DNA from: a virus
DNA length: 64,000 bases
IMG/VR virus record: IMGVR_UViG_3300018422_000001
Location: 1-64,000 of that record
Direction: 5' to 3' (one strand)
The position numbers and the translations under genes were made by a program. Below, piece by piece: positions 645 to 22,797 of the stretch. The notes under the pieces were generated by a model that was given only the letters and a program-made list of their open reading frames with translations, made no database searches and was not told where the DNA came from. Every line of letters starts with the position of its first letter. Within the stretch, counting starts at the first letter, position 1.

Positions 645-683
645 TGAAATACCGCTTGCGTCTTTCAAGACCGGAGCTAGTCT
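645..683 (+). promoter_or_regulatory. Box A promoter/operator copy 1
   Basis: TGAAATACCGCTTGCGTCTTTCAAGACCGGAGCTAGTCT. TAGTCT ends 9 nt before ATG 693. Confidence 0.6.
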
Positions 684-692
684 CAAATACAG

Positions 693-1004
693 ATGGACAC
701 CAACGAGAAAACGCAGTCGTTCGAAGTCACGGTCGAAGCTTTCGTCGCCAAGCTCAATGCTCGCTCGGCAGAGCTTGCCGCGGCGGGCAAGAGCCCTCTT
801 TACAAGAGCTTCGGCTACACCATGGGACCTAAGCACGCGCGGATCTTCTCGATTTGCGGCAGCTCGCGATCCTCGCGGGCATTCTTCAGTCGTGACGGCT
901 TGATCCGACGCGCCGACAGCTGGAAAGCGGCGGGCCGTGTGCTCGGTTCGCACGACAGCGACGGTGCTTTTGCCTACGTTCTCGGCATCTATCTCAGCTA
1001 TTGA
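693..1004 (+). CDS. small early protein, unknown function (103 aa, MDTNEK...)
   Basis: ORF track. Start coupled to Box A copy 1. Stop abuts Box A copy 2. Confidence 0.6.
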   Translation: MDTNEKTQSFEVTVEAFVAKLNARSAELAAAGKSPLYKSFGYTMGPKHARIFSICGSSRSSRAFFSRDGLIRRADSWKAAGRVLGSHDSDGAFAYVLGIYLSY

Positions 1005-1043
1005 TGAAATAGTGCTAGCGCTTTTCAAAGACTCAGCTAGGTT
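1005..1043 (+). promoter_or_regulatory. Box A promoter/operator copy 2
   Basis: TGAAATAGTGCTAGCGCTTTTCAAAGACTCAGCTAGGTT. TAGGTT ends 6 nt before ATG 1050. Confidence 0.6.
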
Positions 1044-1049
1044 CAAGTC

Positions 1050-1829
1050 ATGGACAGCAAGGCAACACGGTCTCTCAACAAGCAATCGGTCGGCGTCGTC
1101 GCGGTGGCGATGTATGGCAAGCGTCGCGAGAAGTTTCTCGCGAGTGTCGCTGTGATCAACGAATCGCTCGCACAAGGCGCCTGGATCAAGCGCGGCTCGG
1201 CAAAAGCCGACGTTGGTTTCTATCAGGGCCTCGAGTCGAAACAGCGCAGAATGCAGCCCTTCCGGCTCGAGATGTGCGTGAATTACGGCCAAGCTTTCGC
1301 AGAAGAGCTGACTGATGAGATGTGCACGCAAACGGCGAATCCGCGCGTGTTGCGCGCCTGGGTTTCGCTCTGCAGCGAGGTTGCCGCCGCCCGTAAGCTT
1401 CTCGACGCGGCCCGCCCGCGACCGGTTGTGACGGCGATCGGGCTCTCGCCGAAAGTCACCAAGACGTTTCAAGAGTGCAATCTCGATCTCGACAGCACGA
1501 CGATCGCGCCTGCAGAAATCGAGCGCTGCGAGGTCCAGCGCCGACACTCGGTGACGGGCGAACCGTGTTTCACGGCGGCGGGCGTGCCTGAGATGGAGGT
1601 GTTTTACCGAGTCAAGTGGTCGACGGGAATCGCGTTGCACGTGAGCCGCTTCTCGTACAGCAACGGCTGCGAGGCGTGTGGCAAGTCGATTCCGAGCGGT
1701 CGATTCGTGCCGATCGAGGCCGACTGCCGCAAGCTTGGCAAGCGGATCGGGATGTGGGTCGGCTGCGATTGCGCGCGGAACATCTTTGGGATCAAGGACA
1801 TCGGGATCGGCCGAACCGAGGCGGTCTGA
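1050..1829 (+). CDS. early protein with C-terminal Cys-rich (Zn-ribbon-like) module (259 aa)
   Basis: ORF track. Leaderless-type start after Box A. C-terminal CEACGKSIPSGRFVPIEADCRKLGKRIGMWVGCDCARNIFG. Confidence 0.65.
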   Translation: MDSKATRSLNKQSVGVVAVAMYGKRREKFLASVAVINESLAQGAWIKRGSAKADVGFYQGLESKQRRMQPFRLEMCVNYGQAFAEELTDEMCTQTANPRVLRAWVSLCSEVAAARKLLDAARPRPVVTAIGLSPKVTKTFQECNLDLDSTTIAPAEIERCEVQRRHSVTGEPCFTAAGVPEMEVFYRVKWSTGIALHVSRFSYSNGCEACGKSIPSGRFVPIEADCRKLGKRIGMWVGCDCARNIFGIKDIGIGRTEAV

Positions 1830-1863
1830 AATCGACGCGAAGGGCCTCGACAACGGGGCCCGC

Positions 1864-2157
1864 ATGCGGGACACTAAGAGCATGGCCACGAAGACGAAGA
1901 AACTCAGGATCGTGCTCGCGAAACTCGTCGATGACGTCGAGGTGATCTCGGCCGGTGCTCGCGACCTCGGAGAGGCGCCGACTCTCGCGGCGATCAAGCG
2001 CGCGGTCGCGGTCGTCTGGAAGTTGAGCGGGACAGAGACCGACCTCGAGAAGGCGCGGAAGTTCGCGGCGATTGAGGGTTACACTGTGCTTGTCTACAAG
2101 ACGAGCGAGCGCAATCCGCTCGAGCGGGCCCGCGCGGAGATCTCGGCTGCCGGCTGA
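1864..2157 (+). CDS. small hypothetical protein (97 aa; alternative ATG 1882)
   Basis: In-frame part of ORF 1678..2157 downstream of the 1050..1829 stop. No own Box A, so probably co-transcribed. Confidence 0.45.
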   Translation: MRDTKSMATKTKKLRIVLAKLVDDVEVISAGARDLGEAPTLAAIKRAVAVVWKLSGTETDLEKARKFAAIEGYTVLVYKTSERNPLERARAEISAAG

Positions 2158-2181
2158 TTCTCGAGCGGCTGCCGCAAGTTA

Positions 2182-2220
2182 TGAAATACCGCTAGCGCTT
2201 TTCAAGGCCCGCGCTAGAGT
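2182..2220 (+). promoter_or_regulatory. Box A promoter/operator copy 3
   Basis: TGAAATACCGCTAGCGCTTTTCAAGGCCCGCGCTAGAGT. TAGAGT ends 6 nt before ATG 2227. Confidence 0.6.
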
Positions 2221-2226
2221 CTAGGT

Positions 2227-2388
2227 ATGAACACGATGACAAACCGAATCGCCAGCCGCTACGAGCAACTTCTTCGCGAGCTGCAGAGCGACATGTGCGA
2301 CCTCGTTGCGAGTGGCGACATGACCGACGTCGAGGCGAATGAGTGGGTCAACGCGGCGGCGGATCGGTGGGCAGCCGAACAAGGCTGA
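2227..2388 (+). CDS. small early protein (53 aa, MNTMTNRIASRYEQLL...), below ORF-track cutoff
   Basis: Hand translation: ATG 2227 to TGA 2386..2388 without stops. Bracketed by Box A copy 3 and hairpin 2403..2425. Confidence 0.55.
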   Translation: MNTMTNRIASRYEQLLRELQSDMCDLVASGDMTDVEANEWVNAAADRWAAEQG

Positions 2389-2402
2389 AAGGCCCGGAGC
2401 GC

Positions 2403-2425
2403 GCCGCTCGAGAATCTCGAGCGGC
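2403..2425 (+). terminator. GC-rich hairpin (10-bp stem GCCGCTCGAG / CTCGAGCGGC, loop AAT)
   Basis: Perfect inverted repeat read directly. No T-tract. The same hairpin recurs at 3635 and 3945. Confidence 0.5.
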
Positions 2426-2437
2426 TGCCGCAAGTTA

Positions 2438-2476
2438 TGAAATACCGCTAGCGCATTTCAAGAGCCGGGCTAGAGT
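2438..2476 (+). promoter_or_regulatory. Box A promoter/operator copy 4
   Basis: TGAAATACCGCTAGCGCATTTCAAGAGCCGGGCTAGAGT. TAGAGT ends 6 nt before ATG 2483. Confidence 0.6.
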
Positions 2477-2482
2477 CTACAC

Positions 2483-2641
2483 ATGGACGACGCACTCAAC
2501 ATCCTGAACCGATTCGAGACCGCCCGCGCGAAAGCCATGGACGCGGAAGCCCGTAACCTCTCGCAGGCAACCCAGCGCAAGCGCTGGCGTGAGTTTTTCG
2601 CGGCGGAAGACGCCCTCAAAGCTCGCGACGGCTGGCGTTGA
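2483..2641 (+). CDS. small early protein (52 aa, MDDALNILNRFETARAK...), below ORF-track cutoff
   Basis: Hand translation ATG 2483 to TGA 2639..2641. The stop overlaps the TGAAA of the next Box A. Confidence 0.55.
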   Translation: MDDALNILNRFETARAKAMDAEARNLSQATQRKRWREFFAAEDALKARDGWR

Positions 2642-2677
2642 AATACCGCTAGCGCTTTTCAATGCCGGAGCTAGGAT
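2639..2677 (+). promoter_or_regulatory. Box A promoter/operator copy 5
   Basis: TGAAATACCGCTAGCGCTTTTCAATGCCGGAGCTAGGAT. TAGGAT ends 6 nt before ATG 2684. Confidence 0.6.
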
Positions 2678-2683
2678 CAACAC

Positions 2684-2875
2684 ATGGACCGAACGCAGCG
2701 AGTGGCTTTGAGTAGCGAACTAAACCGCCTGAATCTCGAGAGGGCGGCTCTGAATCGGAAACGCGGCCCTCTCGGGCACGGCGTGATTTATCACGCGGAT
2801 CTCGCGGAGAAGCGGATCGCCTTGACAGCGCGGATCGAAGAGATCCGGGGCTTGTTGAGCGAGGGCAAGTCATGA
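2684..2875 (+). CDS. small early protein (63 aa, MDRTQRVA...)
   Basis: ORF track. Leaderless-type start after Box A. Confidence 0.6.
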   Translation: MDRTQRVALSSELNRLNLERAALNRKRGPLGHGVIYHADLAEKRIALTARIEEIRGLLSEGKS

Positions 2876-3069
2876 GCATCACGCGAGAGCAACTCGACTC
2901 GCACCAATGCGATCGCGCCCGATCGTGGTGGGAACACGACGCGCAAGGCATCCCGCTCTGTCGGGTGTGCGACAAATGCAGACAGAGCAAGCTGTCGCGC
3001 TACAGGCCCGAGATTCTGAGCGGCTACGATCAATCTGACGTCGACGAGCCGATCGATCCCGACGAGTGA
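2872..3069 (+). CDS. small Cys-rich protein (65 aa)
   Basis: ORF track. ATGA overlap with the previous gene. CDRARSWWEH...CRVCDKCRQSK pattern and acidic tail. Confidence 0.55.
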   Translation: MSITREQLDSHQCDRARSWWEHDAQGIPLCRVCDKCRQSKLSRYRPEILSGYDQSDVDEPIDPDE

Positions 3070-3268
3070 GACCGCCGCCCGCGGGGCAGCCCGAGAGCCC
3101 GAGAGGCCCGCGCCGGGGCCCGAGTCGCACGGCCGCCGATCTGCGCCGCTCGAGAGCCCGAGAGGCCCGATCCGGGGCAGCTCGAGACCGCCGATCGGCG
3201 CCGCTCGAGACCGCCGAATCGGCGCAGCCCCGAGATCGCTCGAGGCCCGCCGAACAATCGACCGGCGC
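3070..3268. repeat. GC-rich degenerate short-repeat spacer (CTCGAG-centred words)
   Basis: CGCCGCTCGAGAGCCCGAGAGGCCCG-type words repeated inside the spacer and also at 245..268. Several GCCGCTCGAGA(C/G)C units. Confidence 0.8.
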
Positions 3269-3271
3269 CGT

Positions 3272-3310
3272 TGAAATACCGCTAGCGCTTTTCAAGGCCG
3301 GAGCTAGAGT
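3272..3310 (+). promoter_or_regulatory. Box A promoter/operator copy 6
   Basis: TGAAATACCGCTAGCGCTTTTCAAGGCCGGAGCTAGAGT. 6 nt before ATG 3317. Confidence 0.6.
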
Positions 3311-3316
3311 GAAGAC

Positions 3317-3622
3317 ATGGACAACGCAGTCGCAAAAATCATCGTGTCTCAGCTCGGCAACCGCGGTTTGACGATGCTCGGCGCGAGCAACCTCGTCGCG
3401 GGCGAAAACAGCCTGACCTTCAAGATTGGCCGTAATGGCAAGTCGGTCTCGCACATCCGGATCACGCTGCAGCCGAGCGACACCTACACGGTCGAATCGC
3501 TCCGCGTGCGTAAGAGCGGCGGCGTGCCGGTGTGCAAGACGCTCGAGACCTGCGAAGACGTGCACGTCGAGAGCCTGCGACGCACCATCGAGGGCTTTAC
3601 CGCGATGTACATGAGCCTGTGA
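3317..3622 (+). CDS. small early protein (101 aa, MDNAVAKI...)
   Basis: ORF track. Leaderless-type start. Followed by hairpin 3635..3657. Confidence 0.6.
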   Translation: MDNAVAKIIVSQLGNRGLTMLGASNLVAGENSLTFKIGRNGKSVSHIRITLQPSDTYTVESLRVRKSGGVPVCKTLETCEDVHVESLRRTIEGFTAMYMSL

Positions 3623-3634
3623 GCCGCCGCCCGC

Positions 3635-3657
3635 GCCGCTCGAGAATCTCGAGCGGC
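3635..3657 (+). terminator. GC-rich hairpin GCCGCTCGAG-AAT-CTCGAGCGGC
   Basis: Identical to the hairpin at 2403..2425. Confidence 0.5.
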
Positions 3658-3669
3658 TGTGACGACTTG

Positions 3670-3708
3670 TGAAATACCGCTAGCGTCTTTCAAGGCGGGA
3701 GCTAGAGT
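3670..3708 (+). promoter_or_regulatory. Box A promoter/operator copy 7
   Basis: TGAAATACCGCTAGCGTCTTTCAAGGCGGGAGCTAGAGT. 6 nt before ATG 3715. Confidence 0.6.
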
Positions 3709-3714
3709 CTACAC

Positions 3715-3933
3715 ATGGACACGAAGCAAGCACTCACTCTGATTTATCGGCACACGCACAAGGACTACCGCGGCAAGCTCGCGGGCCGCAAGACGATCCT
3801 GATGGGTCGCCCGGGCGTCGGCACCTGCCTCGTGTTTCTCGAGGATTTGACGGCGGCGGAGATCGCCTCGCTGCTACCCGGGGCAGAGCGCCGAGAAGCC
3901 GAGCGGCTCGCGAAGAAGGCGCTCAAAGCTTGA
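3715..3933 (+). CDS. small early protein (72 aa, MDTKQALT...)
   Basis: ORF track. Leaderless-type start. Hairpin follows. Confidence 0.6.
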   Translation: MDTKQALTLIYRHTHKDYRGKLAGRKTILMGRPGVGTCLVFLEDLTAAEIASLLPGAERREAERLAKKALKA

Positions 3934-3944
3934 GCGAGGCCCGC

Positions 3945-3967
3945 GCCGCTCGAGATTCTCGAGCGGC
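3945..3967 (+). terminator. GC-rich hairpin GCCGCTCGAG-ATT-CTCGAGCGGC
   Basis: Perfect 10-bp stem read directly. Confidence 0.5.
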
Positions 3968-3979
3968 TGCCGCAAGTTA

Positions 3980-4018
3980 TGAAATACCGCTAGCGCTTTT
4001 CAAGACTGGAGCTAGATT
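3980..4018 (+). promoter_or_regulatory. Box A promoter/operator copy 8
   Basis: TGAAATACCGCTAGCGCTTTTCAAGACTGGAGCTAGATT. 6 nt before ATG 4025. Confidence 0.6.
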
Positions 4019-4024
4019 GAAGTT

Positions 4025-4243
4025 ATGGAAACGAATCGCAAGAACACGCCGACCTGGACCGTGACGGAAGCCGTAGTGAACGAGCGCGGGATGCTCGTGT
4101 GCACGACCCGCAGCCTGACCTTTCGCGCCGAAAACGCCCTCGAGGCCGACGGCATCATGGTCGGTTGGGCCCGCTTTATCGGCGCGACCGCCGTGTATGT
4201 GCGCAACCCCTGGATGCACAACGAGTACGCGACCGCGGTTTGA
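4025..4243 (+). CDS. small early protein (72 aa, METNRKNT...)
   Basis: ORF track. The first 4 codons are nearly identical at DNA level to gene 4368. Confidence 0.6.
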   Translation: METNRKNTPTWTVTEAVVNERGMLVCTTRSLTFRAENALEADGIMVGWARFIGATAVYVRNPWMHNEYATAV

Positions 4244-4322
4244 GACCGCCCGCCCGCGCCGGGGAACGACCGGCGCCCGGCGCCCGCCGACAGGGCCCGC
4301 GGGAACAATCGACCGGCGCCGT

Positions 4323-4361
4323 TGAAATACCGCTAGCGCTTTTCAAGGCCGGAGCTAGATT
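4323..4361 (+). promoter_or_regulatory. Box A promoter/operator copy 9
   Basis: TGAAATACCGCTAGCGCTTTTCAAGGCCGGAGCTAGATT. 6 nt before ATG 4368. Confidence 0.6.
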
Positions 4362-4367
4362 GAAGTT

Positions 4368-4670
4368 ATGGAAACGAACCGCAACGAGACGCAGACGCTC
4401 TTCGCCCTCATGACCGACCGCGACGAAGCTTGGCGCTGCAGCAAGTGCTCGGGCAAGGGTGTGATTGACGCCTACCACTGGAACAAGGACGGGCTCTGCT
4501 TCAAGTGCGAGGGCACCGGCGCCGCTCAGGATGCGCGCTCGCTCAAGACGGTCGAGCGGCTCGACGCGAAGATCGCCAAGCTCAGCGCCTCGATTCAGGC
4601 GCGCGCGCCGAAAGCCGAGGAACTGCCGGATCTCGCGGACATCGACCTCTCGGCTCTGATGAGCGGCTGA
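4368..4670 (+). CDS. small protein with two DnaJ-type CxxCxGxG zinc-finger motifs (100 aa)
   Basis: CSKCSGKG and CFKCEGTG motifs. Leaderless-type start after Box A. Confidence 0.65.
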   Translation: METNRNETQTLFALMTDRDEAWRCSKCSGKGVIDAYHWNKDGLCFKCEGTGAAQDARSLKTVERLDAKIAKLSASIQARAPKAEELPDLADIDLSALMSG

Positions 4671-4680
4671 AACCTACAGG

Positions 4681-4694
4681 GCCCCGATCGGGGC
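4681..4694 (+). terminator. short GC hairpin (palindrome GCCCCGATCGGGGC)
   Basis: Perfect 14-nt palindrome 11 nt after the stop of 4368..4670. Confidence 0.4.
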
Positions 4695-4730
4695 TCTCCG
4701 AGCCCGCGCCGAACAATCGACCGGCGCCGT

Positions 4731-4769
4731 TGAAATACCGCTAGCGCTTTTCAAGACTCGAGCTAGATT
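4731..4769 (+). promoter_or_regulatory. Box A promoter/operator copy 10
   Basis: TGAAATACCGCTAGCGCTTTTCAAGACTCGAGCTAGATT. 6 nt before GTG 4776. Confidence 0.6.
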
Positions 4770-4775
4770 CAAGAC

Positions 4776-4946
4776 GTGGACAGCAACAACCTGACGTTCT
4801 GGGGATACTCGAAGATCAACGGCCGCACTTTCGGCGCCTGGCTCCGCGCGGCGGGCCGCCATGATGGCAACGTAACCGCTGTAGGTTACATGGACTTGCA
4901 AGCGGCTTGGCGCCGGGGCGAAAAGCCCGCGGATCACACCTACTGA
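4776..4946 (+). CDS. small early protein (56 aa, VDSNNLTFWGYSKING...), below ORF-track cutoff
   Basis: Hand translation GTG 4776 to TGA 4944..4946. Followed by a terminator-like hairpin. Confidence 0.5.
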   Translation: MDSNNLTFWGYSKINGRTFGAWLRAAGRHDGNVTAVGYMDLQAAWRRGEKPADHTY

Positions 4947-4955
4947 AGACCTGCA

Positions 4956-4984
4956 GGGGCCGCCTAGAGCGGCCCTTGTTCGTT
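4956..4984 (+). terminator. rho-independent-like terminator (GGGCCGC-CTAGA-GCGGCCC then TTGTTCGTT)
   Basis: 7-bp GC stem, 5-nt loop, T-rich tail read directly. Confidence 0.6.
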
Positions 4985-5207
4985 CCCCGACCGAGAGGCG
5001 CCGCCGCCCGCGCGCGCCGCCTGCGACCGTCAGAGCCCCGCTCGAGACCGCTCGAGACCGCCGCTCGAGACCGCCGACCGCGCCTGCGACCGTCAGAGCC
5101 CCGCGCCGAGACCGCCTGCGACCGCCGCCCGCGCCGGGGCAAGCTCGAGACCGCCGACCGAGACCGCGACGGATCGGCGCTCGAGAATCTCGAGCGGCTG
5201 CCGCAAG
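4985..5207. repeat. GC-rich degenerate short-repeat spacer
   Basis: CGCCTGCGACCGTCAGAGCCCCGC occurs twice. CCGCTCGAGACCG units. Ends in hairpin CGCTCGAG-AAT-CTCGAGCG at 5178..5196. Confidence 0.8.
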
Positions 5208-5210
5208 TTA

Positions 5211-5249
5211 TGAAATACCGCTAGCGTCTTTCAACGCGCGAGCTAAGCT
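5211..5249 (+). promoter_or_regulatory. Box A promoter/operator copy 11
   Basis: TGAAATACCGCTAGCGTCTTTCAACGCGCGAGCTAAGCT. 6 nt before ATG 5256. Confidence 0.55.
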
Positions 5250-5255
5250 CTGGTT

Positions 5256-5432
5256 ATGACAACGACGAGCAACGCGAAGACCTGGATTGTGGCCGAGTAT
5301 CGCAGCGACGACTTTTACGGCCAGACCGAGAACCTCACCTTGCAGGCAGCACACGCGCTAGCCGAAAAGATTCGGGAGAGCGGGCACGAAGCCTCGGTGG
5401 TCGACAACCTCGCTGACCTCGAATCTTTCTGA
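5256..5432 (+). CDS. small early protein (58 aa, MTTTSNAKTWIVAEYRSDDFYGQ...), below ORF-track cutoff
   Basis: Hand translation ATG 5256 to TGA 5430..5432. Hairpin follows. Confidence 0.55.
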   Translation: MTTTSNAKTWIVAEYRSDDFYGQTENLTLQAAHALAEKIRESGHEASVVDNLADLESF

Positions 5433-5446
5433 GAAGAGCCCCGACC

Positions 5447-5471
5447 GGGCCCCGGGGAACAGCCGGGGCCC
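5447..5471 (+). terminator. GC hairpin GGGCCCCGG-GGAACAG-CCGGGGCCC
   Basis: Perfect 9-bp stem read directly, 15 nt after the stop codon. Confidence 0.5.
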
Positions 5472-5624
5472 GCGCCGCTCGAGACCGCCGCTCGAGACCG
5501 CCGAGACCGCCGCTCGAGACCGCCGCTCGAGACCGCCGACCCGCGCCGACCCGCGCCGACCGCGCCGACCGCGCCGACCGCGCCGACCGCGCCGACCCGC
5601 GACGACCCGCGCCGAGACCGCCGA
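5472..5624. repeat. two adjoining microsatellite-like arrays (13-bp CCGCTCGAGACCG x4; 9/10-bp CCGAC(C)CGCG x8)
   Basis: Read directly from 5472..5624. Confidence 0.9.
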
Positions 5625-5663
5625 CGAAATACCGCTAGCGTTTTTCAAGACTCGAGCTAGGAT
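5625..5663 (+). promoter_or_regulatory. Box A promoter/operator copy 12
   Basis: CGAAATACCGCTAGCGTTTTTCAAGACTCGAGCTAGGAT. 6 nt before ATG 5670. Confidence 0.6.
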
Positions 5664-5669
5664 CAAGAC

Positions 5670-6271: not shown

Positions 6272-6310
6272 TGAAATACAGCTGGCGCTTTTCAACCGCG
6301 CTGCTAGGCT
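6272..6310 (+). promoter_or_regulatory. Box A promoter/operator copy 13 (diverged)
   Basis: TGAAATACAGCTGGCGCTTTTCAACCGCGCTGCTAGGCT. 6 nt before ATG 6317. Confidence 0.5.
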
Positions 6311-6630: not shown

Positions 6631-6658
6631 TTGACTGTACACGCATCCGGGGTACAAT
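6631..6658 (+). promoter_or_regulatory. canonical sigma-70-type promoter TTGACT-16 nt-TACAAT
   Basis: TTGACT 6631..6636, TACAAT 6653..6658. The predicted TSS near 6665/6666 coincides with an in-frame GTG 6666. Confidence 0.6.
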
Positions 6659-6953
6659 GAATGCTGTGACTCCGACCGAAGTAGTCGTCTCGAAAGAAGC
6701 GCAAAAGGATCTTCGAACGGTACCGAAGCAAGTGGCGCGAAAGTTCGAGCAGTGGCGTCTTGCGATTTTGGTCGATGGTCTCGAAGAGACGCGGAAGATC
6801 CCGGGGTACCACGATGAGCCGCTTGCGGGAGATCTCGCGGGAACACGCTCGGTCCGACTGAGCGGCGCCTATCGCGCTTACTACCGGATCGAGGACGGCG
6901 AGATTCGGCTTGTCAGAGTCACGGGCGTTGACAAACACCGGTATCGGAAGTGA
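6657..6953 (+). CDS. RelE/ParE-superfamily (HigB-like) toxin (start ATG 6657 or, more likely, GTG 6666)
   Basis: GYHDEPLAGDLAGTRSVRLSGAYRAYYRIEDGEIRLVRVTGVDKHRY matches the RelE/ParE C-terminal pattern. Toxin-first order with a downstream XRE HTH. Confidence 0.7.
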   Translation: MNAVTPTEVVVSKEAQKDLRTVPKQVARKFEQWRLAILVDGLEETRKIPGYHDEPLAGDLAGTRSVRLSGAYRAYYRIEDGEIRLVRVTGVDKHRYRK

Positions 6954-16923: not shown

Positions 16924-17100
16924 TCAGGCAGGCGCGTTCCACTCTGCGAGGCAGAGCCGCTCGTTGCCGTAGGCTTTCATGGCTGCGAAGACGAGCCAAT
17001 CGCGCTCCGAGGTTAGATGGCCGGGCAGGCAATCGAGGCAATCGAGGCTCGGTTGCCGCATCGCGTGCAGGGTCCTGTCGAGTAGTTCTAAGAGAGACAT
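16924..17100 (-). CDS. small early protein (58 aa, MSLLELLDRTLHAMRQ...), below ORF-track cutoff
   Basis: Hand translation with no stops. GGAG 8 nt before ATG 17100. Downstream of the minus-strand Box A at 17141. Confidence 0.45.
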   Translation of the reverse strand: MSLLELLDRTLHAMRQPSLDCLDCLPGHLTSERDWLVFAAMKAYGNERLCLAEWNAPA

Positions 17101-17140: not shown

Positions 17141-17179
17141 ACACTAGCTCCGGTCTTGAAAAGCGCTAGCGGTATTTCT
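17141..17179 (-). promoter_or_regulatory. Box A promoter/operator copy 14 (minus strand; only copy with a ~45-nt leader)
   Basis: Reverse complement AGAAATACCGCTAGCGCTTTTCAAGACCGGAGCTAGTGT. Confidence 0.55.
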
Positions 17180-17436
17180 CAGGCGCCCGCCGTCCACACG
17201 TGCACTCGCCAATCGTTGCCGTCGACGTCGGTACCCCAATACTCATGATGAGGGCGCTCGGCATCGTGCACGGCGACGTCACCTTCGCACTCGACGAAGA
17301 GAGCGGCGCATACAACGCTCGGATCGAGGCGGCCCGCCTGAGCCATGTCGACGGCATCGATCCAGACAGTCTGTCCGCGCGAGATCGATTCGTTGATTGA
17401 GTGGTCGATGAGCTGAGAGAGGTTATTCGTGGACAT
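17179..17436 (-). CDS. small early protein (85 aa)
   Basis: ORF track. GGAG before ATG 17436. Confidence 0.55.
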   Translation of the reverse strand: MSTNNLSQLIDHSINESISRGQTVWIDAVDMAQAGRLDPSVVCAALFVECEGDVAVHDAERPHHEYWGTDVDGNDWRVHVWTAGA

Positions 17437-17480: not shown

Positions 17481-17717
17481 TTACGCCTGCTCGCGAGAGG
17501 CGAGCCATGCTCGACCGGTCTCGGTTGCGCGCGCGTGATTGGCGTTTCGAGTCGCGAAGCCGATGCTCACGAGGTGCTCGATCGCGTTCCACCATCGCGC
17601 GGCATCGGGGCCCGCCATGCGGTAGCCGCTCGGTGTCAGCGATCCGTCCGCTGTAGCCGCCTCGGTGAGCACGACGACGCGGTAGGCGGTCAACTTGATT
17701 GGTTTCTGCGATGCCAT
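17481..17717 (-). CDS. small early protein (78 aa)
   Basis: ORF track. ATG 17717 lies 6 nt after the TAGAGT of minus-strand Box A. Confidence 0.6.
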   Translation of the reverse strand: MASQKPIKLTAYRVVVLTEAATADGSLTPSGYRMAGPDAARWWNAIEHLVSIGFATRNANHARATETGRAWLASREQA

Positions 17718-17723: not shown

Positions 17724-17762
17724 ACTCTAGCTCCGGTCTTGAAAAGCGCTAGTGGTATTTCA
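17724..17762 (-). promoter_or_regulatory. Box A promoter/operator copy 15 (minus strand)
   Basis: Reverse complement TGAAATACCACTAGCGCTTTTCAAGACCGGAGCTAGAGT. Confidence 0.6.
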
Positions 17763-17805: not shown

Positions 17806-17988
17806 TCAGACCTTGACCGTACACGCGACTGGATACTGCCCGGCAGTCTGCGACATCCAGCGACCCGCGCTGACTTCGTACACGTGCAACCCGCGAAGCA
17901 CGTAGGTGTGTGGCGGCTCGCCCGGGCCGACCGAGAACGTGTTGCGCACTTCCATCCACTGCCCGTTGACTCTGATTTGCTTGCTCAC
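17806..17988 (-). CDS. small early protein (60 aa from GTG 17988)
   Basis: GTG 7 nt after the TAGGCT of Box A copy 16. C-terminal part of ORF 17806..18222. Confidence 0.5.
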   Translation of the reverse strand: MSKQIRVNGQWMEVRNTFSVGPGEPPHTYVLRGLHVYEVSAGRWMSQTAGQYPVACTVKV

Positions 17989-17995: not shown

Positions 17996-18034
17996 AGCCT
18001 AGCTCGGTCGCTGAAAGATGCAAGCGGTATTTCA
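17996..18034 (-). promoter_or_regulatory. Box A promoter/operator copy 16 (minus strand, diverged)
   Basis: Reverse complement TGAAATACCGCTTGCATCTTTCAGCGACCGAGCTAGGCT. Confidence 0.5.
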
Positions 18035-18220
18035 ACCGCTCTTGAGTGTTGCCTTGTACACGGCGACAGTGACGTAGCCGTCACGGTGGCTCTTTGTGCG
18101 CACGACGCGAGAGCCGTCCGGCTGATAGGCCGTTTCAAAGCAAACTTTCGGCCCGGGCGCGCACACGATGCGCACTGCCGTCGACTTCGCTTCTGCCCAC
18201 TTGAGATCGATGTTCTCCAC
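18032..18220 (-). CDS. small early protein (62 aa)
   Basis: ORF track. GTG 18220 lies 23 nt downstream of the Box B TAGTGT. Confidence 0.55.
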   Translation of the reverse strand: MENIDLKWAEAKSTAVRIVCAPGPKVCFETAYQPDGSRVVRTKSHRDGYVTVAVYKATLKSG

Positions 18221-18236
18221 ACCTCAACCGTAGCTT

Positions 18237-18253
18237 ATCCGGGACACTAGCGC
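18237..18253 (-). promoter_or_regulatory. Box B motif copy 2
   Basis: ATCCGGGACACTAGCGC. Confidence 0.55.
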
Positions 18254-18289
18254 AAGAGGCTCGGCTCGAGAATCGACTGCGCGCCGGGC

Positions 18290-18337
18290 GCAGACGGCAG
18301 ACGGCAGACGGCAGACGGCAGACGGCAGACGGCAGAC
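18290..18337. repeat. 7-bp microsatellite (GCAGACG) x6.9
   Basis: Read directly. Lies between two Box B copies. Confidence 0.95.
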
Positions 18338-18380: not shown

Positions 18381-18397
18381 ATCCGGGACACTAGCGC
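18381..18397 (-). promoter_or_regulatory. Box B motif copy 3
   Basis: ATCCGGGACACTAGCGC. Confidence 0.5.
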
Positions 18398-18425: not shown

Positions 18426-18464
18426 TGAAATACCGCAAGCGCTTTTCAGAGGCGGAGCTAGTCT
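18426..18464 (+). promoter_or_regulatory. Box A promoter/operator copy 17
   Basis: TGAAATACCGCAAGCGCTTTTCAGAGGCGGAGCTAGTCT. 7 nt before GTG 18472. Confidence 0.55.
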
Positions 18465-18471: not shown

Positions 18472-19407
18472 GTGAGCACCACGATGAAAACGCTTCGGTT
18501 CGGGATTGAGATTGAAACGGTCGGCGCGTCGCGCCCGACGATCGCTGCGGCGATTGCCACGGTACTCGGCGGCAACTACAACGGCGGCGAGACGGCGACC
18601 GACTCGCTCGGTCGCACATGGAAGGTTGTGCCCGATGGCAGCCTCGCAGGCGGATACGACCGTAGCGGCGAGATTGTCTCGCCGATCCTCACCTACGCCG
18701 ACCTCGACACGCTGCAGGCGATTGTGCGTGCAGTGCGTGCGGCGGGCGCGCGGGTCGATAGCTCATGCGGCATTCACGTACACATCGACAGCTCGACGTT
18801 TACGGCAAAGAGCGTCGTCAACCTCGTCAAGACAGTGCACAAGCAAGAGCGCTTGATCGAGCACGCCTTGCGCATCGCGCCGAGTCGACTCGAGCGCTAC
18901 TGCCGCCCGATCGATGCCGATTTCATGGCTCGCCTCGAGTCGACCACGGTTCGCACGATGGCCGATGTGTCGAATGCTTGGTACGGCTACAGCAACTCTT
19001 CGCCGAACCGCTACGACAGCTCGCGTTACCATGGCCTCAACCTCAACTCTCACTTTTTTCGCGGAACCGTTGAGTTTCGCTACTTCTCGGGCTCGTTGCA
19101 TGCTGGCGAGGTCAAGGCGTATGTGCAGTTTGCGCTCGCACTCGCGGCCCGCTCGCTCACGATGAAGGCTGCTTCGAGCAAGCGCCGCGAATTCAACGTC
19201 GATACCGCGAAATACGACTTTCGCGTACTCATGATCAAGCTCGGCCTGATCGGCGACGAGTTCAAAACGTGCCGCCTCCATCTCTCGAAGCATCTCGAGG
19301 GTACGAGCGCGACGAAGCGAGCGGTCGTCGCGACGGCGGCGGTTGCCGCAACGGAGACCGCTGCAGCCGTCGAGACGGCCGACAACGGGGCAGCCGATGG
19401 CGAGTAA
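18472..19407 (+). CDS. amidoligase-family enzyme (Amidoligase_2 / glutamine-synthetase-like COOH-NH2 ligase)
   Basis: [28 protein letters not shown] and [11 protein letters not shown] motifs typical of the putative amidoligase family. Confidence 0.75.
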
Positions 19408-19897
19408 GCCCCGCGGCAAGCGGCCGACAGCGGCCCGCACAAGCGCTCGAGAGGCCCTCTACTTCGCATACGGCTCGAACCTGAGCCCGGCGCAGATGCA
19501 GGCGCGATGTCCAGGCGCCTTGATCGAGGCCCGCGCGACTCTCAGCGACTACGCGATCGCATTCGGCGGATTCAGTGCGAGATGGGGCGGCGGTGTCGCA
19601 AGTCTCGTACGAGTGCGAGGCGCCTGCACAGAGGGCCTGATCTACCGAATCGACAGAGACCTCATGAGTCGACTGGATCAGTACGAGGGTGTTCCCCGCG
19701 CATACGTGCGCATCGCGAAAGAGGTGCTTGACGAGCATGGACGGCGGCGTCGAGCGCAAGTGTATCTGCAGACGGACGCGTCGTTCGAATCCGAGAACCT
19801 GCCCTCTGCGAGGTACCTCGCTCAGATCCTCGCCGCCTACGATCGCCTGGGTTTCGACACCGATCCGCTACGTGCCGCAGTTGGAGGTTTTCAGTGA
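19397..19897 (+). CDS. gamma-glutamylcyclotransferase-like (AIG2/GGCT fold) protein 1
   Basis: [19 protein letters not shown] near the N-terminus, YEGVP motif. Start ATG 19397 overlaps the amidoligase end by 11 nt. Confidence 0.65.
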
Positions 19898-20259
19898 CCA
19901 TCGTGTTTGTGTACGGCTCATTACTTGCAGGGCAGGGCAACAACCGGTTGCTTCGTACGGCCCGATTCGTCGGGCCCGGGCGGACGGCACCCGAGTACAC
20001 GATGCTTTCGCTAGGCGGGTTTCCAGGCGTCGTGAGCGGCGGCAGTACCCCGATCGAGGGCGAGTGCTACGAGGTCGACGGCCCGACGCTCGAGGCACTA
20101 GACAGGCTCGAGGGGCACCCAAGCTTCTACCGTCGCACGGCGATTGTGCTAGAGGACAAGTTGTCGGTTGAATTCTACTTGCTCAATACCGAGCACGTGC
20201 GAGAGCTGCCGATCGTGGTTTCGGGATCCTGGTTGAAGTACCGGCAGGGGCAAAGATGA
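19894..20259 (+). CDS. gamma-glutamylcyclotransferase-like (AIG2/GGACT) protein 2
   Basis: [50 protein letters not shown]-coupled. Confidence 0.7.
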   Translation: MTIVFVYGSLLAGQGNNRLLRTARFVGPGRTAPEYTMLSLGGFPGVVSGGSTPIEGECYEVDGPTLEALDRLEGHPSFYRRTAIVLEDKLSVEFYLLNTEHVRELPIVVSGSWLKYRQGQR

Positions 20260-20501
20260 GAATCGAGATTCGAGATGGTCGCGTGTTGCAGGGGACGGCG
20301 TTGCAGATCGTAAAGGCGATGCAGGACCTCGCATTCGGCGTGCAAGATTTCACGGTCGCGCAATACGTCGCTTGGGTCGTCGACAACTCGCTACGCATCG
20401 AAGAGCTAGTGCTCGACGTCAAGGGCGAGACCGACGACGAGCTTGCGCAGTCGCTCGTTGCCGAGATGCTCGGCAAGAATCTCGCGCGAAAGCTCGACTG
20501 A
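20256..20501 (+). CDS. small hypothetical protein (81 aa)
   Basis: ORF track. ATGA-coupled to GGCT-2. Confidence 0.5.
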   Translation: MRIEIRDGRVLQGTALQIVKAMQDLAFGVQDFTVAQYVAWVVDNSLRIEELVLDVKGETDDELAQSLVAEMLGKNLARKLD

Positions 20502-20541
20502 GACATGGCAACGAAGCCCGCCTCGATCGAATACGGTTGGG

Positions 20542-21027
20542 GTGCGGCGGCGAAACACAGTCGATGATTTTTGGCGGAACGTCGATCGCTCAGGCGGGCC
20601 GGATGCTTGTTGGCCATGGAAGGGTGCGCCCGACTCCGATGGCTACGGGCGAATGATGGTCGATGGGAAGCAATACAAGGCGCATCGGTTCGCATACGGC
20701 GTGACAAATGGATTCGTGCCGCCGAGTGTTCTGATCCGTCACTCGTGCGACAACCCGCCGTGTTGCAACCCGGGTCACTTGTTGACAGGCTCGCCTGCAG
20801 ACAACATGCGAGATCGCGACGAGCGCGGACGGCATGTGTCTCGCCCCGGAGAGACTAACGGATCGTCCAAGTTGCTCGATGCGCAAGCCGCAGAAATACG
20901 CGCGCGGTTTTTGCGCGGCGAGTCGGCTGCCTCAATCGCGAGAGACTTCCCGCAAGTCACCTACTGTCAGACGAATCGAATCGCGCGCCGCTACAGCAGA
21001 ACGAAGGACAATCAGCGTGGCCAGTAA
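20542..21027 (+). CDS. HNH homing-type endonuclease
   Basis: FWRNVDRSGGPDACWPWKG...YGRMMVDGKQYKAHRFAY...IRHSCDNPPCCNPGHL. GTG 20542 chosen as the first start after the upstream stop. Confidence 0.7.
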   Translation: MRRRNTVDDFWRNVDRSGGPDACWPWKGAPDSDGYGRMMVDGKQYKAHRFAYGVTNGFVPPSVLIRHSCDNPPCCNPGHLLTGSPADNMRDRDERGRHVSRPGETNGSSKLLDAQAAEIRARFLRGESAASIARDFPQVTYCQTNRIARRYSRTKDNQRGQ

Positions 21028-21913
21028 ACAGTTTCGACCGATGCTTGCAGCAACTTTGGAGTCTGTGACTCAGCTGCGATTTCCAGTGCTCGCCTCGCCA
21101 AAACTGGACGGAATTCGTACCGTGATTCGCGACGGCAAGGCTCTGAGCCGGAGCCTCAAGCCGATCCCGAACGAAGCGGTCCGCAAGTTTCTCGAGGGCC
21201 GCCCGGAACTCGAGGGTCTCGACGGTGAGTTGATGGTGCATGGCGCAACGTTTCAAGCGACGACGAGTGCGTTTATGAGCCGCTCGGGCGCGTTGCCTGC
21301 AGGCTGGTATTTCGGCGTGTTCGATGCTCTGCCGATCGTCGAGCGTGAGCCGTACACGCAACGGTTGATCCGCGCGACCGCCGCCGTCGCGAAAGCCGGG
21401 CCTCACATCGTGCTTGTCGAGCAGACCGAGGTTTGCAGCGCGGATCAGCTCGACACCTACGAAGCGAAAGCGCTAGAGCTTGGCTTCGAGGGCGTCATGA
21501 TTCGTCGCGCTGCAGCCTTCTACAAGCACGGGCGCTCGACCGCGACCGACGGCGCCTTGCTCAAGCTCAAGCGCTTTGCCGACGGCGAAGCGACCGTGAT
21601 TGGCTTCGCGGAGCGCATGCACAACGGCAACATTGCGACGACGAGCGCGACCGGTCGCACGCAACGATCGTCTGCGAAAGCAGGCAAGTCGCAGACGGGC
21701 AGTCTCGGCGCGTTGCTCGTGCGTGAGTGCAAGACCGGGATCGAGTTTGAGGTCGGCACGGGTTTCACCGAGGCGCAGCGACAGACGTTCTGGCGTACGC
21801 AAGCCGAGTTGCTCGGTCGCACGATCAAGTACAAGCACTTCGTGATCGGCGCGATGGTCAAGCCGCGGTTCCCGACCTTCATCGGGTTTCGCGCCGCAGA
21901 GGACATGAGCTGA
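21017..21913 (+). CDS. ATP-dependent DNA ligase
   Basis: Nucleotidyl-transferase motif I SPKLDGIRTV. GFEGVMIRR and LLKLK motifs. Start GTG 21017 (or ATG 21041) overlaps the HNH end. Confidence 0.75.
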   Translation: MASKQFRPMLAATLESVTQLRFPVLASPKLDGIRTVIRDGKALSRSLKPIPNEAVRKFLEGRPELEGLDGELMVHGATFQATTSAFMSRSGALPAGWYFGVFDALPIVEREPYTQRLIRATAAVAKAGPHIVLVEQTEVCSADQLDTYEAKALELGFEGVMIRRAAAFYKHGRSTATDGALLKLKRFADGEATVIGFAERMHNGNIATTSATGRTQRSSAKAGKSQTGSLGALLVRECKTGIEFEVGTGFTEAQRQTFWRTQAELLGRTIKYKHFVIGAMVKPRFPTFIGFRAAEDMS

Positions 21914-22023
21914 GAGAGGGCCTCTCGAGCCCCGGCGCCGCCCGCGCCGCTCGAGGGTGCTACGTCGATGAGGTCGCTCGAGGCCCGCACCGCTCAGAGG
22001 CCCGAGAGCGCTCCGGGCTCGGT

Positions 22024-22063
22024 TGAAATACCGCTTGCGTGTTTCAAAGGCTCGCGCTAGAGT
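22024..22063 (+). promoter_or_regulatory. Box A promoter/operator copy 18 (40 nt)
   Basis: TGAAATACCGCTTGCGTGTTTCAAAGGCTCGCGCTAGAGT. 6 nt before GTG 22070. Confidence 0.55.
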
Positions 22064-22069
22064 CTTGGT

Positions 22070-22288
22070 GTGAGCAAGATCATTTTCATCCGGCACTCAT
22101 CAGGCGCAACGCATGCACTCGGCGGCAAGCGACTCGCGAAACTGCTCTCCGAGCTGAAAGCCGGGCGCGGGCAAGTCGAGATGTGCCGCTTGCAGGAAAA
22201 CGGGTACATGGAGACGATGTCGGGTCACTGCATCAGCGATTTGACGTACGAGCTTGCTCTGCGCCTCGCATCCGGCGCAGCCGAGTGA
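22070..22288 (+). CDS. small early protein (72 aa)
   Basis: ORF track. Leaderless-type GTG start. Confidence 0.55.
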   Translation: MSKIIFIRHSSGATHALGGKRLAKLLSELKAGRGQVEMCRLQENGYMETMSGHCISDLTYELALRLASGAAE

Positions 22289-22301
22289 TCCCGGGCGGTT
22301 G

Positions 22302-22340
22302 TGAAATACCGCTTGCGTGTTTCAAAGCGTGAGCTAGGCT
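22302..22340 (+). promoter_or_regulatory. Box A promoter/operator copy 19
   Basis: TGAAATACCGCTTGCGTGTTTCAAAGCGTGAGCTAGGCT. 6 nt before GTG 22347. Confidence 0.55.
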
Positions 22341-22346
22341 CAAGAC

Positions 22347-22442
22347 GTGGACATCAGAGAGCGCGGCACCGGTTGGATTCTTTCACTAGTCGACGTCGTT
22401 TTCGTCGCGATTTTTCGGGTGCCTCTGACCCGCCCGTTTTGA
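22347..22442 (+). CDS. possible 31-aa leaderless micro-ORF (VDIRERGTGWILSLVDVVFVAIFRVPLTRPF)
   Basis: Hand translation. Hydrophobic core. Very short, so uncertain. Confidence 0.3.
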   Translation: MDIRERGTGWILSLVDVVFVAIFRVPLTRPF

Positions 22443-22449
22443 GGCAAGC

Positions 22450-22725
22450 ATGACACCCATCGAGTTTTGGCCCATCGTGCGACGCAAGGGCCGCGCGGGA
22501 TACAGCGCTGCGCACTTCGCGGCGGTTAGCCCGCAAGCCGACAACCCTCTGCTCGTTGCCGAGCGACTCGCGGCCCGCGTGTCGGGCTCGAGTCGTGAGC
22601 GGAACTGGAGCGAGCTTTGCGAGTCTTGGGATTTTCTGATCGCGACGCTCGAGAGGCATTCGGCCGAGCCGCAGATCGCCAAGTTTCTCAAAGCGGCCGT
22701 GAAAGCGAAGAAGAGCGCGACCTGA
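22450..22725 (+). CDS. small hypothetical protein (91 aa)
   Basis: ORF track. Confidence 0.5.
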   Translation: MTPIEFWPIVRRKGRAGYSAAHFAAVSPQADNPLLVAERLAARVSGSSRERNWSELCESWDFLIATLERHSAEPQIAKFLKAAVKAKKSAT

Positions 22726-22758
22726 GCCGGGGGAAACCCGAGAGGTCCCGAGTGGTTA

Positions 22759-22797
22759 TGAAATACCGCTAGCGCTTTTCAAGGCTTGAGCTAGAGT
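22759..22797 (+). promoter_or_regulatory. Box A promoter/operator copy 20
   Basis: TGAAATACCGCTAGCGCTTTTCAAGGCTTGAGCTAGAGT. Confidence 0.55.

Follow-up and report, generated by a model that had tools for sequence, protein, structure and literature searches.

The stretch of DNA analyzed here (positions 1 to 64,000 of IMG/VR record IMGVR_UViG_3300018422_000001; the window) comes from a large, myovirus-like phage with genes for a portal, a sheath, a tape measure, a baseplate hub, and baseplate J, together with an ATP-dependent ligase, an amidoligase, two GGACT proteins, a DNA methylase, and a tyrosine integrase. The source contig measures ~110 kb; our analysis covered the 64-kb window, and ~46 kb lie outside it. 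The window has a G+C content of ~62%, and ARAGORN found no tRNA in it. Its early region carries many copies of a 39-nucleotide (nt) element, Box A, which ends in a TAnnnT hexamer and which an initial annotation had described as a promoter class of its own. We found that Box A is very probably a promoter for leaderless early genes and that it appears to use the -10 contacts of a host sigma70-type RNA polymerase.

A portal identical to that of the window was found on a 110,308-bp contig, and a 92%-identical portal on the 73,487-bp contig IMGVR_UViG_3300018432_000014 (hereafter the relative), which has 77-89% DNA identity to the window. The relative is the only other carrier of multiple Box A copies found in IMG/VR and the JGI metagenomes. 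Its assembled part (32.8 kb) contains 15 full Box A copies and one half box.

Copies of Box A and their genes

Twenty copies of Box A are present where the initial annotation had placed them. The window contains exactly these twenty, all between 645 and 22797, and its structural module has none. Nineteen are 39 nt long, as had been reported, and the copy at 22024 measures 40 nt, with one extra base in the variable spacer. The 25-nt core TGAAATACCGCTAGCGCTTTTCAAG occurs at 17 sites with ≤3 mismatches, compared with 0.00 in 100 dinucleotide-preserving shuffles, and GCTAGC-N18-TAnnnT at 13 sites, compared with 0.07 expected. Scanning the 64 kb with a position weight matrix made from the copies gave a bimodal distribution, with 19 sites at 46-69 bits and, apart from the 40-nt variant at 22024, no other site above 8 bits. 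Single positions are less uniform than annotated: GCTAGC, said to be invariant, is exact in 13 of the 20 copies and differs by one base in seven (GCTTGC in four, and GCAAGC, GCTGGC, and ACTAGC); two copies begin with CGAAA or AGAAA instead of TGAAA; the hexamers TAGGTT (1005) and TAGTGT (17141) were missing from the list; and the palindrome described as flanked by TGAAA and TTTCA arms has a core, CGCTAGCG, whose dyad center differs from that of the arms by half a base pair. The copies and their open reading frames (ORFs; protein lengths in amino acids, aa; leaderless stands for predicted leaderless) are listed below; Box B is a second promoter class described further on.

645..683, plus strand: Box A before ORF 693-1004 (103 aa), ATG 9 nt past the hexamer; the 9-nt spacing recurs at the orthologous box of the relative (32124)
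1005..1043, plus strand: Box A with hexamer TAGGTT, before leaderless ORF 1050-1829 (259 aa), ATG at 6 nt; same start in an independent gene call on a Logan contig
2182..2220, plus strand: Box A before leaderless ORF 2227-2388 (53 aa)
2438..2476, plus strand: Box A before leaderless ORF 2483-2641 (52 aa)
2639..2677, plus strand: Box A whose TGA also terminates the ORF before it; leaderless ORF 2684-2875 follows, then ORF 2872-3069 through an ATGA stop/start overlap
3272..3310, plus strand: Box A before leaderless ORF 3317-3622 (101 aa)
3670..3708, plus strand: Box A before leaderless ORF 3715-3933 (72 aa)
3980..4018, plus strand: Box A before leaderless ORF 4025-4243 (72 aa)
4323..4361, plus strand: Box A before leaderless ORF 4368-4670 (100 aa)
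4731..4769, plus strand: Box A before leaderless ORF 4776-4946 (56 aa), GTG start
5211..5249, plus strand: Box A with hexamer TAAGCT, before leaderless ORF 5256-5432 (58 aa)
5625..5663, plus strand: Box A before leaderless ORF 5670-6212 (180 aa)
6272..6310, plus strand: weakest Box A (46 bits), before leaderless ORF 6317-6625; the relative's orthologue lies behind Box B
17141..17179, minus strand: Box A with hexamer TAGTGT; leadered ORF 17100..16924 (58 aa) begins 40 nt downstream, GGAG 8 nt before its ATG
17724..17762, minus strand: Box A before leaderless ORF 17717..17481 (78 aa), then the Shine-Dalgarno-led ORF 17436..17179
17996..18034, minus strand: Box A before leaderless ORF 17988..17806 (60 aa), GTG at 7 nt; the relative's orthologue lies behind Box B
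18426..18464, plus strand: Box A before the leaderless amidoligase gene 18472-19407, GTG at 7 nt; heads a plus-strand gene run through the ligase at 21913
22024..22063, plus strand: 40-nt Box A variant (+1 nt in the variable spacer), before leaderless ORF 22070-22288
22302..22340, plus strand: Box A before the short leaderless ORF 22347-22442; ORF 22450-22725 comes next, its ATG preceded at 5 nt by GAGG
22759..22797, plus strand: Box A; leadered ORF 22836-23093 (85 aa) begins 38 nt downstream, GGAG 7 nt before its ATG; same layout in the relative at 51492

Box A had 0 matches in 185,579 species-representative genomes, and a scan of IMG/VR with a degenerate skeleton of the box returned, besides the relative, chance singletons only (L003-L005). 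An origin as a host repeat of the repetitive extragenic palindrome (REP) type, which the initial annotation had raised as a challenge to its own proposal, does not agree with these results, since multiple copies occur in metagenomes on one related phage contig only. All 20 copies are moreover oriented with their downstream gene, and a REP-like repeat, or one resembling a miniature inverted-repeat transposable element, is excluded as far as the data go. Two unrelated metagenomic contigs of lower G+C content carry the upstream 23-25 nt of Box A once each in near-perfect form (L008 1546-1584 and L011 1064-1102) and lack its downstream half; these matches may be due to chance or to a shared binding site.

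Predicted leaderless starts and the anatomy of Box A

Behind 18 of the 20 copies lies an ORF of high G+C content at third codon positions whose ATG or GTG follows the hexamer after 6 nt (15 copies), 7 nt (two), or 9 nt (one). Counted from the first T of the hexamer, the start codon comes after 12, 13, and 15 nt, respectively, which leaves no room for a Shine-Dalgarno sequence. At the two exceptions, 17141..17179 (minus strand) and 22759 (plus strand), the ORF that begins at 6 nt is non-coding in composition, and the real genes begin 40 and 38 nt away, their ATG preceded by GGAG at 7-8 nt. The relative has the same split into leaderless and leadered genes, with its exceptions at 31234 (minus strand) and 51492 (plus strand). 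Genes inside operons have GGAG (17436..17179) or an ATGA stop/start overlap (2872), and GGAG at a functional spacing is restricted to such genes and to the two leadered exceptions. An independent gene call on the Logan contig gave the same leaderless start codons. Because the start codon stands 6-9 nt past the hexamer without a Shine-Dalgarno sequence, while the leadered exceptions have GGAG, Box A can very probably be regarded as a promoter for leaderless mRNAs; from the same dichotomy we infer that transcription starts at the start codon. The initial annotation had noticed neither this geometry nor the upstream stem-loops, the shuffling of cassettes, and Box B, all described below.

We pooled 34 fixed-length boxes from the window and the relative to define the anatomy of the element. 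The invariant positions are G2-A7 (-44 to -39), C11, G14, T19-A23 (-27 to -23), G32-A35 (-14 to -11), and T39 (-7). Within the hexamer, T34, A35, and T39 (T-12, A-11, and T-7) are fixed in 34/34 boxes, whereas 15 and 18 departures were counted at positions 37 and 38, which are free. G-14, the key base of an extended -10, and C-13 are likewise invariant in 34/34. Fixed T-12, A-11, and T-7 around a free middle are the signature of a putative sigma70-type -10 element. Upstream of it, spacer positions 25-29 vary in sequence, and the spacer has the same length in 34 of 35 boxes. The spacer separates the -10 from an upstream block of 24 nt (-45 to -22), TGAAATA-CCGCTAGCG-yyTTTCAA, in which conservation is asymmetric across the dyad: changes occur at positions 16-18 and none in the left half.

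These features suggest that a host RNA polymerase of the sigma70 family would read GnTAGnnT as a -10 element by contacting T-12, A-11, and T-7. Transcription would then start ~7 nt downstream, at the first base (A or G) of the start codon, and produce mRNA without a 5' untranslated region or a Shine-Dalgarno sequence. As a leaderless mRNA needs a start codon at its 5' terminus, each small gene would have its own promoter, which may be the reason for the one-promoter-per-gene layout.

A TANNNT signal ~12 bp upstream has been reported for leaderless genes (PMC3160421), and the motif has been validated experimentally as the -10 of leaderless genes in Deinococcus (PMC12340547). Box A shares with the TANNNT-led leaderless genes of Deinococcus-Thermus and Actinobacteria the TAnnnT ~12 nt from the start, the lack of a Shine-Dalgarno sequence, and the uninformative middle three positions, but its -10 sits in an invariant, phage-specific unit of 39 nt that is present in 20 copies. 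Leaderless middle and late transcripts are known from the Thermus phage phiYS40. The first two codons behind both Box A and Box B are strongly biased to ATG-GAC or ATG-GAA (Met-Asp/Glu; for example at 1050, 2483, 3317, and 5670, and at 72 and 3111 of the related locus L117), which may reflect a constraint on the sequence transcribed first or a need of leaderless translation. The proteins behind Box A are not paralogues and have almost no family matches; as they are unrelated, the conserved ATGGAC would be part of the signal and not a sign of common descent.

A -35 element is missing from Box A. The best match to TTGACA is 2/6 at a spacing of 16, 17, or 18 nt, in agreement with the initial annotation, and a consensus promoter scan of positions 1-8000 made no call at any Box A. 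It called a single promoter, which had been annotated as a textbook example and is indeed present:

6631..6668, plus strand: canonical promoter TTGACT-16-TACAAT (6631..6658), then 7 nt and GTG at 6666; leaderless gene for a ParE-like toxin (6666-6953), followed by a helix-turn-helix (HTH) antitoxin gene (6910-7407)

This is the only canonical sigma70 promoter. It drives a toxin-antitoxin pair and not a phage regulator; the ParE/RelE-like toxin gene is overlapped by that of an HTH_3 protein, and the pair looks like a toxin-first toxin-antitoxin moron. The 6631 promoter and Box B have the same -10-to-start spacing as Box A but possess a -35 (TTGACT, TTGCGC, or TCGACA). Because the 6631 promoter combines this geometry with a -35, the host presumably recognizes -35 elements of the ordinary kind and apparently accepts leaderless starts. 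Box A looks like a dedicated promoter class, as had been proposed, and the sequence that it has in place of a -35 is not that of a host -35.

Other known promoter and operator types were rejected by inspection of the consensus: in a sigma54 promoter reading GG-N10-GC is out of register; no CGT(C/A) follows TGAAAT after 16-17 nt as in promoters of extracytoplasmic function (ECF) sigma factors; CTTGAAA of sigma32 promoters occurs on the bottom strand only and CCCCAT is missing; and there is no match to a LexA, CRP, or Fur box. An archaeal TATA box with B recognition element was rejected because the relatives of the structural genes are bacterial and the other promoters here carry a bacterial-type -35. 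A promoter for a single-subunit RNA polymerase of the T7 or N4 type was rejected because the ORFs scanned, which include the largest of the window but cover the genome incompletely, contain no polymerase domain and because conservation is bipartite, from -45 to -7.

The box might instead act in RNA, as a site of translation initiation or of regulator binding. In Cluster K mycobacteriophages, start-associated sequences (SAS) and extended SAS (ESAS) are oriented repeats a few bp before start codons, with an AGGAG Shine-Dalgarno core, and are thought to be translational (PMC3203893). Like them, Box A stops 6-9 nt short of the start codons of non-structural genes, prefers ATG, and has upstream inverted repeats in a subset of copies, and 8 of the 18 leaderless genes have GGAG inside the box. 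In contrast to SAS, Box A has TAGnnT 6 nt before the start and no AGGAG core at 3-7 bp; its GGAG lies ~13 nt from the ATG and the first G is not conserved (10/19 window copies), the two start-distant copies gain a separate, correctly spaced Shine-Dalgarno sequence, and the pattern of invariant and free hexamer positions is that of a -10. The RNA folding z-score of Box A is +0.25, no better than that of shuffled sequence, and Rfam gave no match at the copies; an intrinsic terminator was rejected as the fold is no better than chance. RNA-level roles are therefore unlikely. A purely selfish or recombinational repeat would agree with the recombination of cassettes at or near the boxes, but the element is absent from the reference genomes, and we give very little credit to this group of explanations as a whole.

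Box B, the phage family and candidate regulators

Box B consists of TTGCGC or TCGACA, a 17-nt spacer with TA-GTGTCCCG-(G/C)AT, a hexamer nAnnnT, 6-7 nt, and the start codon; its palindromic core is GTCCCGnATnCGGGAC. The window contains four complete copies:

562..599, minus strand: Box B, TTGCGC-17-CACGAT-6-GTG with GTGTCCCGG in the spacer, before ORF 564..331; divergent from the first Box A
1847..1884, plus strand: Box B, TCGACA-17-GACACT-6-ATG with palindrome GGGCCCGCATGCGGGAC, before array gene 1882-2157; the relative's orthologue lies behind Box A
18218..18255, minus strand: Box B before ORF 18220..18032; divergent from the Box A at 18426, with an extra half-site near 18384-18391
25389..25426, plus strand: Box B, TCGACA-17-GACACT-6-GTG; antisense into the sigma region 4-like gene 25439..25930 (minus strand); conserved in the relative

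The motif alone occurs near 18391 (minus), 33834 (minus; ~33827-33834), and 23571 (plus), and the relative has Box B at 32070, 36717, 47320, 47449, 49590, 52297, and 54162.

The window belongs to a family of phages with contigs of ~105-120 kb and portals that are 55-70% identical. No isolated phage is closely related: megablast of positions 1-7000 against INPHARED gave no match, and neither did tblastn with the 753-aa head protein. A portal profile search of the 185,579 reference genomes matched 14 loci, one of them on an 887-kb contig. Eleven of the 14 are labeled Myxococcales, Kofleriaceae, Sandaracinaceae, Archangiaceae, or delta-proteobacterial metagenome-assembled genomes (MAGs), and three come from a single MAG labeled Proteobacteria only. 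Because these loci lie mostly in myxobacterial MAGs, the host is probably a myxobacterium (Myxococcota), judging from distant relatives. The phage itself is a soil phage of ~110 kb.

Box B is found in three of five portal relatives, in the portal-flanking loci of L014, L116, and L117 (65-70% portal identity). In L014 and L117 it is present in three or four copies, at least some of them directly before small genes that start with ATGGA. Box A was not found in the portal-flanking DNA fetched from the five relatives (60-70% identity). Two others, with portals ~60% identical, repeat a third palindrome, AAAAGTTGTAACCTCGAGGTTACAACTTT (L013 6781-6809 and 9674-9702; L015 1277-1305, 5745-5773, and 9666-9694), which may act as an operator or form a hairpin like that of a bidirectional terminator. 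The family-wide design is a fixed-length, palindrome-bearing cassette with a predicted leaderless promoter, and its palindrome differs by lineage. Such differences fit sites of phage-encoded DNA-binding proteins, not elements read by a shared host polymerase. That the architecture is kept in relatives while the palindrome changes also makes the phage-specified factor proposed in the initial annotation plausible.

The upstream block is probably the site of a phage protein that takes the place of the -35 element. A phage-specific DNA-binding protein would bind it at a fixed distance from the -10. The gene for this activator, or -35 substitute, would be expressed from promoters of the host type, for example Box B; Box A itself would form a delayed-early or middle class that is silent without the factor. 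We consider the chances of such positive control to be about even. An activator is preferred because Box A has no -35 though other promoters of the phage have one, because the distance to the -10 is rigid and conservation of the dyad asymmetric, and because Box B looks repressor-controlled, with an operator that spans its spacer and -10.

The same block could, as a less probable alternative, be an operator. Box A would then be active by itself through its -10 with G-14 and the A/T-rich, UP-like TGAAATA, and the block at -34 would bind an immunity repressor that silences ~20 early promoters at once in a lysogen. The phage encodes a tyrosine integrase, and a toxin-antitoxin pair together with a resolvase in the family suggests a prophage or plasmid state. 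The CGCTAGCG core and the TGAAA/TTTCA arms are dyad-symmetric, with a center at about -34, a classic position for a repressor; OR2 of lambda lies at -34 of PR. The palindrome differs among related phages as immunity specificities do, and the C1 repressor of P1, with 22 dispersed operators, provides a precedent (PMC8546580). However, strong unaided activity is doubtful for a promoter with no -35 in a genome where others have one. The asymmetric conservation, the variable positions 16-18, and the two dyad centers are unlike a simple dimer operator, a rigid distance to the -10 is needless for occlusion, and Box B already looks repressor-controlled.

The gene 25439..25930, which had been listed among possible sigma-like factors, lies on the minus strand and encodes only a region 4.2 and a zinc ribbon. 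Pfam Sigma70_r4 is matched at positions 20-48 only, and sequence matches in the PDB cover region 4.2 only. The HTH retains TRERVRQIE, with all -35-contacting residues of primary sigma factors, and is followed by a Cys4 zinc ribbon; the protein also carries an AT-hook-like KRRGRAP motif and a basic tail. A Foldseek search with the AlphaFold model of the protein (mean pLDDT 74) yielded nothing but isolated sigma region 4 domains, at E-values that are not significant alone. Among 5.8 billion proteins it has just 26 homologues, several of which are encoded on the large contigs that also carry the related portals, and the recognition helix is invariant, including in relatives whose fetched loci have no Box A. 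Since it has region 4.2 only and keeps its helix where no Box A was found, we rejected this protein as a sigma factor and do not consider it a good candidate for the Box A-specific factor. It could compete for, or mimic, -35 recognition.

A specificity module supplied by the phage, either a complete sigma factor or RNA polymerase outside the window or 25439..25930 (minus strand) supplying or replacing -35 recognition, is improbable. The family-specific HTH with its retained -35-contacting residues, the TTGAAA-like hexamers in the arms of the box, and the ~46 kb of the source contig outside the window would leave room for it. Against it stand the lack of region 2 or any other recognizable domain in 25439..25930, the helix that is invariant in 26 homologues, including relatives without Box A in portal-flanking DNA, and the bipartite conservation from -45 to -7, unlike T7-type promoters. 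Pfam scans of ~60 ORFs of the window and of 20 ORFs in a further 18.5 kb of the relative detected no RNA polymerase and no sigma region 2. It is just as improbable that 25439..25930 acts as a surrogate sigma region 4 that binds the TTGAAA-like TGAAA/TTTCA arms near A/T-rich patches and recruits or retargets the host polymerase, possibly in competition with the host sigma factor for ordinary -35 elements. If true, this would be a split sigma or a reverse sigma appropriation, coupled to wholesale leaderless early-gene expression in a myxobacterial phage.

Other candidate factors are the generic HTH_31 proteins at 14136-14396 and 24890-25294, the Fis-type HTH protein encoded at 26053-26448 (a homologue is present in locus L014, which bears Box B, and the fetched L013 and L015 loci gave no match), and small ORFans transcribed from Box B. 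The HTH protein 6910-7407 was rejected as regulator of the box because it is the antitoxin partner of the ParE-like toxin.

Taken as a whole, a promoter cassette with an activator-type upstream block is the explanation that we favor with moderate confidence. Several points weigh against it. The palindromic core CGCTAGCG and the integrase fit a repressor operator equally well, and all candidate activators are ORFans or generic HTH proteins of the XRE or Fis type. The GGAG ~13 nt before the ATG in 8 of 18 leaderless genes could serve as a weak Shine-Dalgarno sequence on read-through transcripts. The extreme similarity of the copies may partly reflect recent duplication or gene conversion and not selection. 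The assignment to a Myxococcota host rests on the MAG labels of relatives with 43-53% portal identity, and in the literature on leaderless genes we found no report of such genes in Myxococcota.

Stem-loops, cassette shuffling and known systems

Four boxes of the window are preceded, at a distance of 12 nt, by a stem-loop GCCGCTCGAG-AWT-CTCGAGCGGC with a perfect or near-perfect 10-bp stem (2403-2425, 3635-3657, 3945-3967, and 5176-5198); the first of them is given as an example:

2403..2425, plus strand: stem-loop GCCGCTCGAG-AAT-CTCGAGCGGC, 12 nt upstream of Box A

The relative has three further copies, each 12 nt before a Box A. Most other copies of Box A are preceded by different GC-rich hairpins, which follow the preceding gene. 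The 60-mers upstream of the boxes have a mean folding energy of -22.7 kcal/mol, compared with -17.7 kcal/mol for random 60-mers (p = 1e-4), and a terminator scan that requires a T-run did not pick up the stem-loops. We propose that the GC-rich stem-loop would insulate each unit and that stem-loop and promoter together would provide a patch of homology for the shuffling, gain, and loss of cassettes.

Between the window and the relative the cassettes are reordered, several are unique to either genome, and two orthologous genes have swapped their promoter class (Box A against Box B). Orthologous boxes are 87% identical, coding sequence 78%, and the 40 nt upstream 66%, which points to purifying selection on Box A. 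At 34467-34505 of the relative lies a degraded half box that has kept the upstream block and lost the -10. The amidoligase loci of other contigs (L036-L115) are ≤50% identical and uninformative on promoter evolution.

GC-rich tandem repeats occupy gaps between early genes (1-319, 3092-3228, 5048-5076, 5473-5615, and 18290-18337), including CGGCGCCCTCGAGCC in 13 copies at the start of the window, arrays of CGCCGCTCGAGAC and CGCCGACCCG before the Box A at 5625, and, at 18.3 kb, seven copies of GCAGACG that separate a Box B from the divergent Box A. The assembled 32.8 kb of the relative lack any match to segment 11840-14084, in which a tRNA-like sequence lies together with the tyrosine integrase and an HNH endonuclease; the segment may be an attP region or a small inserted mobile element. 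Its tRNA-like sequence (13201-13278, plus strand) scores 31.8 bits with Rfam, was missed by ARAGORN, and by eye resembles tRNA-Arg(UCG) in its 5' part. The portal gene of the relative (P0002, 1012 aa) has an extra Pfam domain, PF14528, which we take to be a LAGLIDADG homing-endonuclease family; this would suggest an intein-like insertion. The plus-strand run 18472-21913, headed by a single Box A, encodes the amidoligase (PF12224), two gamma-glutamyl cyclotransferase-like proteins, small ORFs, and the ATP-dependent DNA ligase, a set that presumably resembles gene sets for peptide ligation or tagging. PADLOC detected nothing in the larger early ORFans. TTAA is absent from the 64 kb (35 ± 5.6 expected from dinucleotide-preserving shuffles) and TATA occurs three times, while TCGA (949) and GATC (771) are ~4-fold above mononucleotide expectation; this skew may reflect restriction avoidance or avoidance of TTAA-targeting elements.

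The closest analogues are the early and middle promoter stem-loops (PeSL and PmSL) of T4-type phages, units of stem-loop, promoter, and start codon that are clustered between ORFans, are linked to indels and shuffling, and occur as half elements (PMC2839356, PMC4122927). Box A likewise forms multi-copy units of stem-loop, promoter, and start codon between small ORFans of a variable early region, is tied to insertion, deletion, replacement, and displacement between close relatives, and has a degraded half element in the half box at 34467 of the relative. As the Mot box of PmSL replaces the -35 upstream of the -10, so does the upstream block of Box A. Unlike PeSL and PmSL, Box A has no Shine-Dalgarno sequence, and its start codon lies at the predicted transcription start; its block comprises 24 nt with dyad symmetry, compared with the 9 bp of the Mot box, and the phage is unrelated to T4. 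The sigma70 -35 of such elements is not present, Pfam scans of the ~60 ORFs gave no match to the MotA and AsiA families, and the likeness to PmSL is one of layout alone. T4 middle promoters combine a sigma70 -10 with a phage box in place of the -35; they are multi-copy and delayed-early and are switched on by MotA/AsiA sigma appropriation. The sequence, length, and position of the box differ from those of Box A, for which neither MotA nor AsiA was detected and activation is our proposal.

The initial annotation had compared Box A to the stoperators of mycobacteriophages, which is a poor analogy: the stoperators of cluster A are asymmetric repressor sites of 13-14 bp that lie outside promoters and block elongation (PMC9283540, PMC6550527). 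What Box A has in common with them and with the P1 operators is the presence of ~20-30 copies of a single regulator site, predicted in the case of Box A, throughout the non-structural portion of a temperate phage genome. The sites in those systems are asymmetric and 13-17 bp long, whereas Box A always has a -10 at a fixed distance and a fixed distance to the start codon.

Multi-copy phage promoters, mobile promoter/terminator cassettes, and TANNNT-led leaderless genes are thus known already. New is their combination in a 39-nt unit with 20 copies, a predicted substitute for the -35, a start codon at the predicted transcription start, and a sibling promoter class, in a phage that is probably myxobacterial. 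To our knowledge, Myxococcota phages have barely been studied, and we know of no account of how transcription is programmed in them. The Box A unit and Box B could serve as portable expression parts for myxobacteria. The locus offers 20 natural replicates of a 45-nt unit that apparently joins a -10, a factor site, and a leaderless start codon, and it makes several questions tractable: how a layout of one promoter per gene relates to leaderless translation, how promoters without a -35 are switched in a host of high G+C content, and how genes are shuffled by promoter/stem-loop units outside the T4 group.

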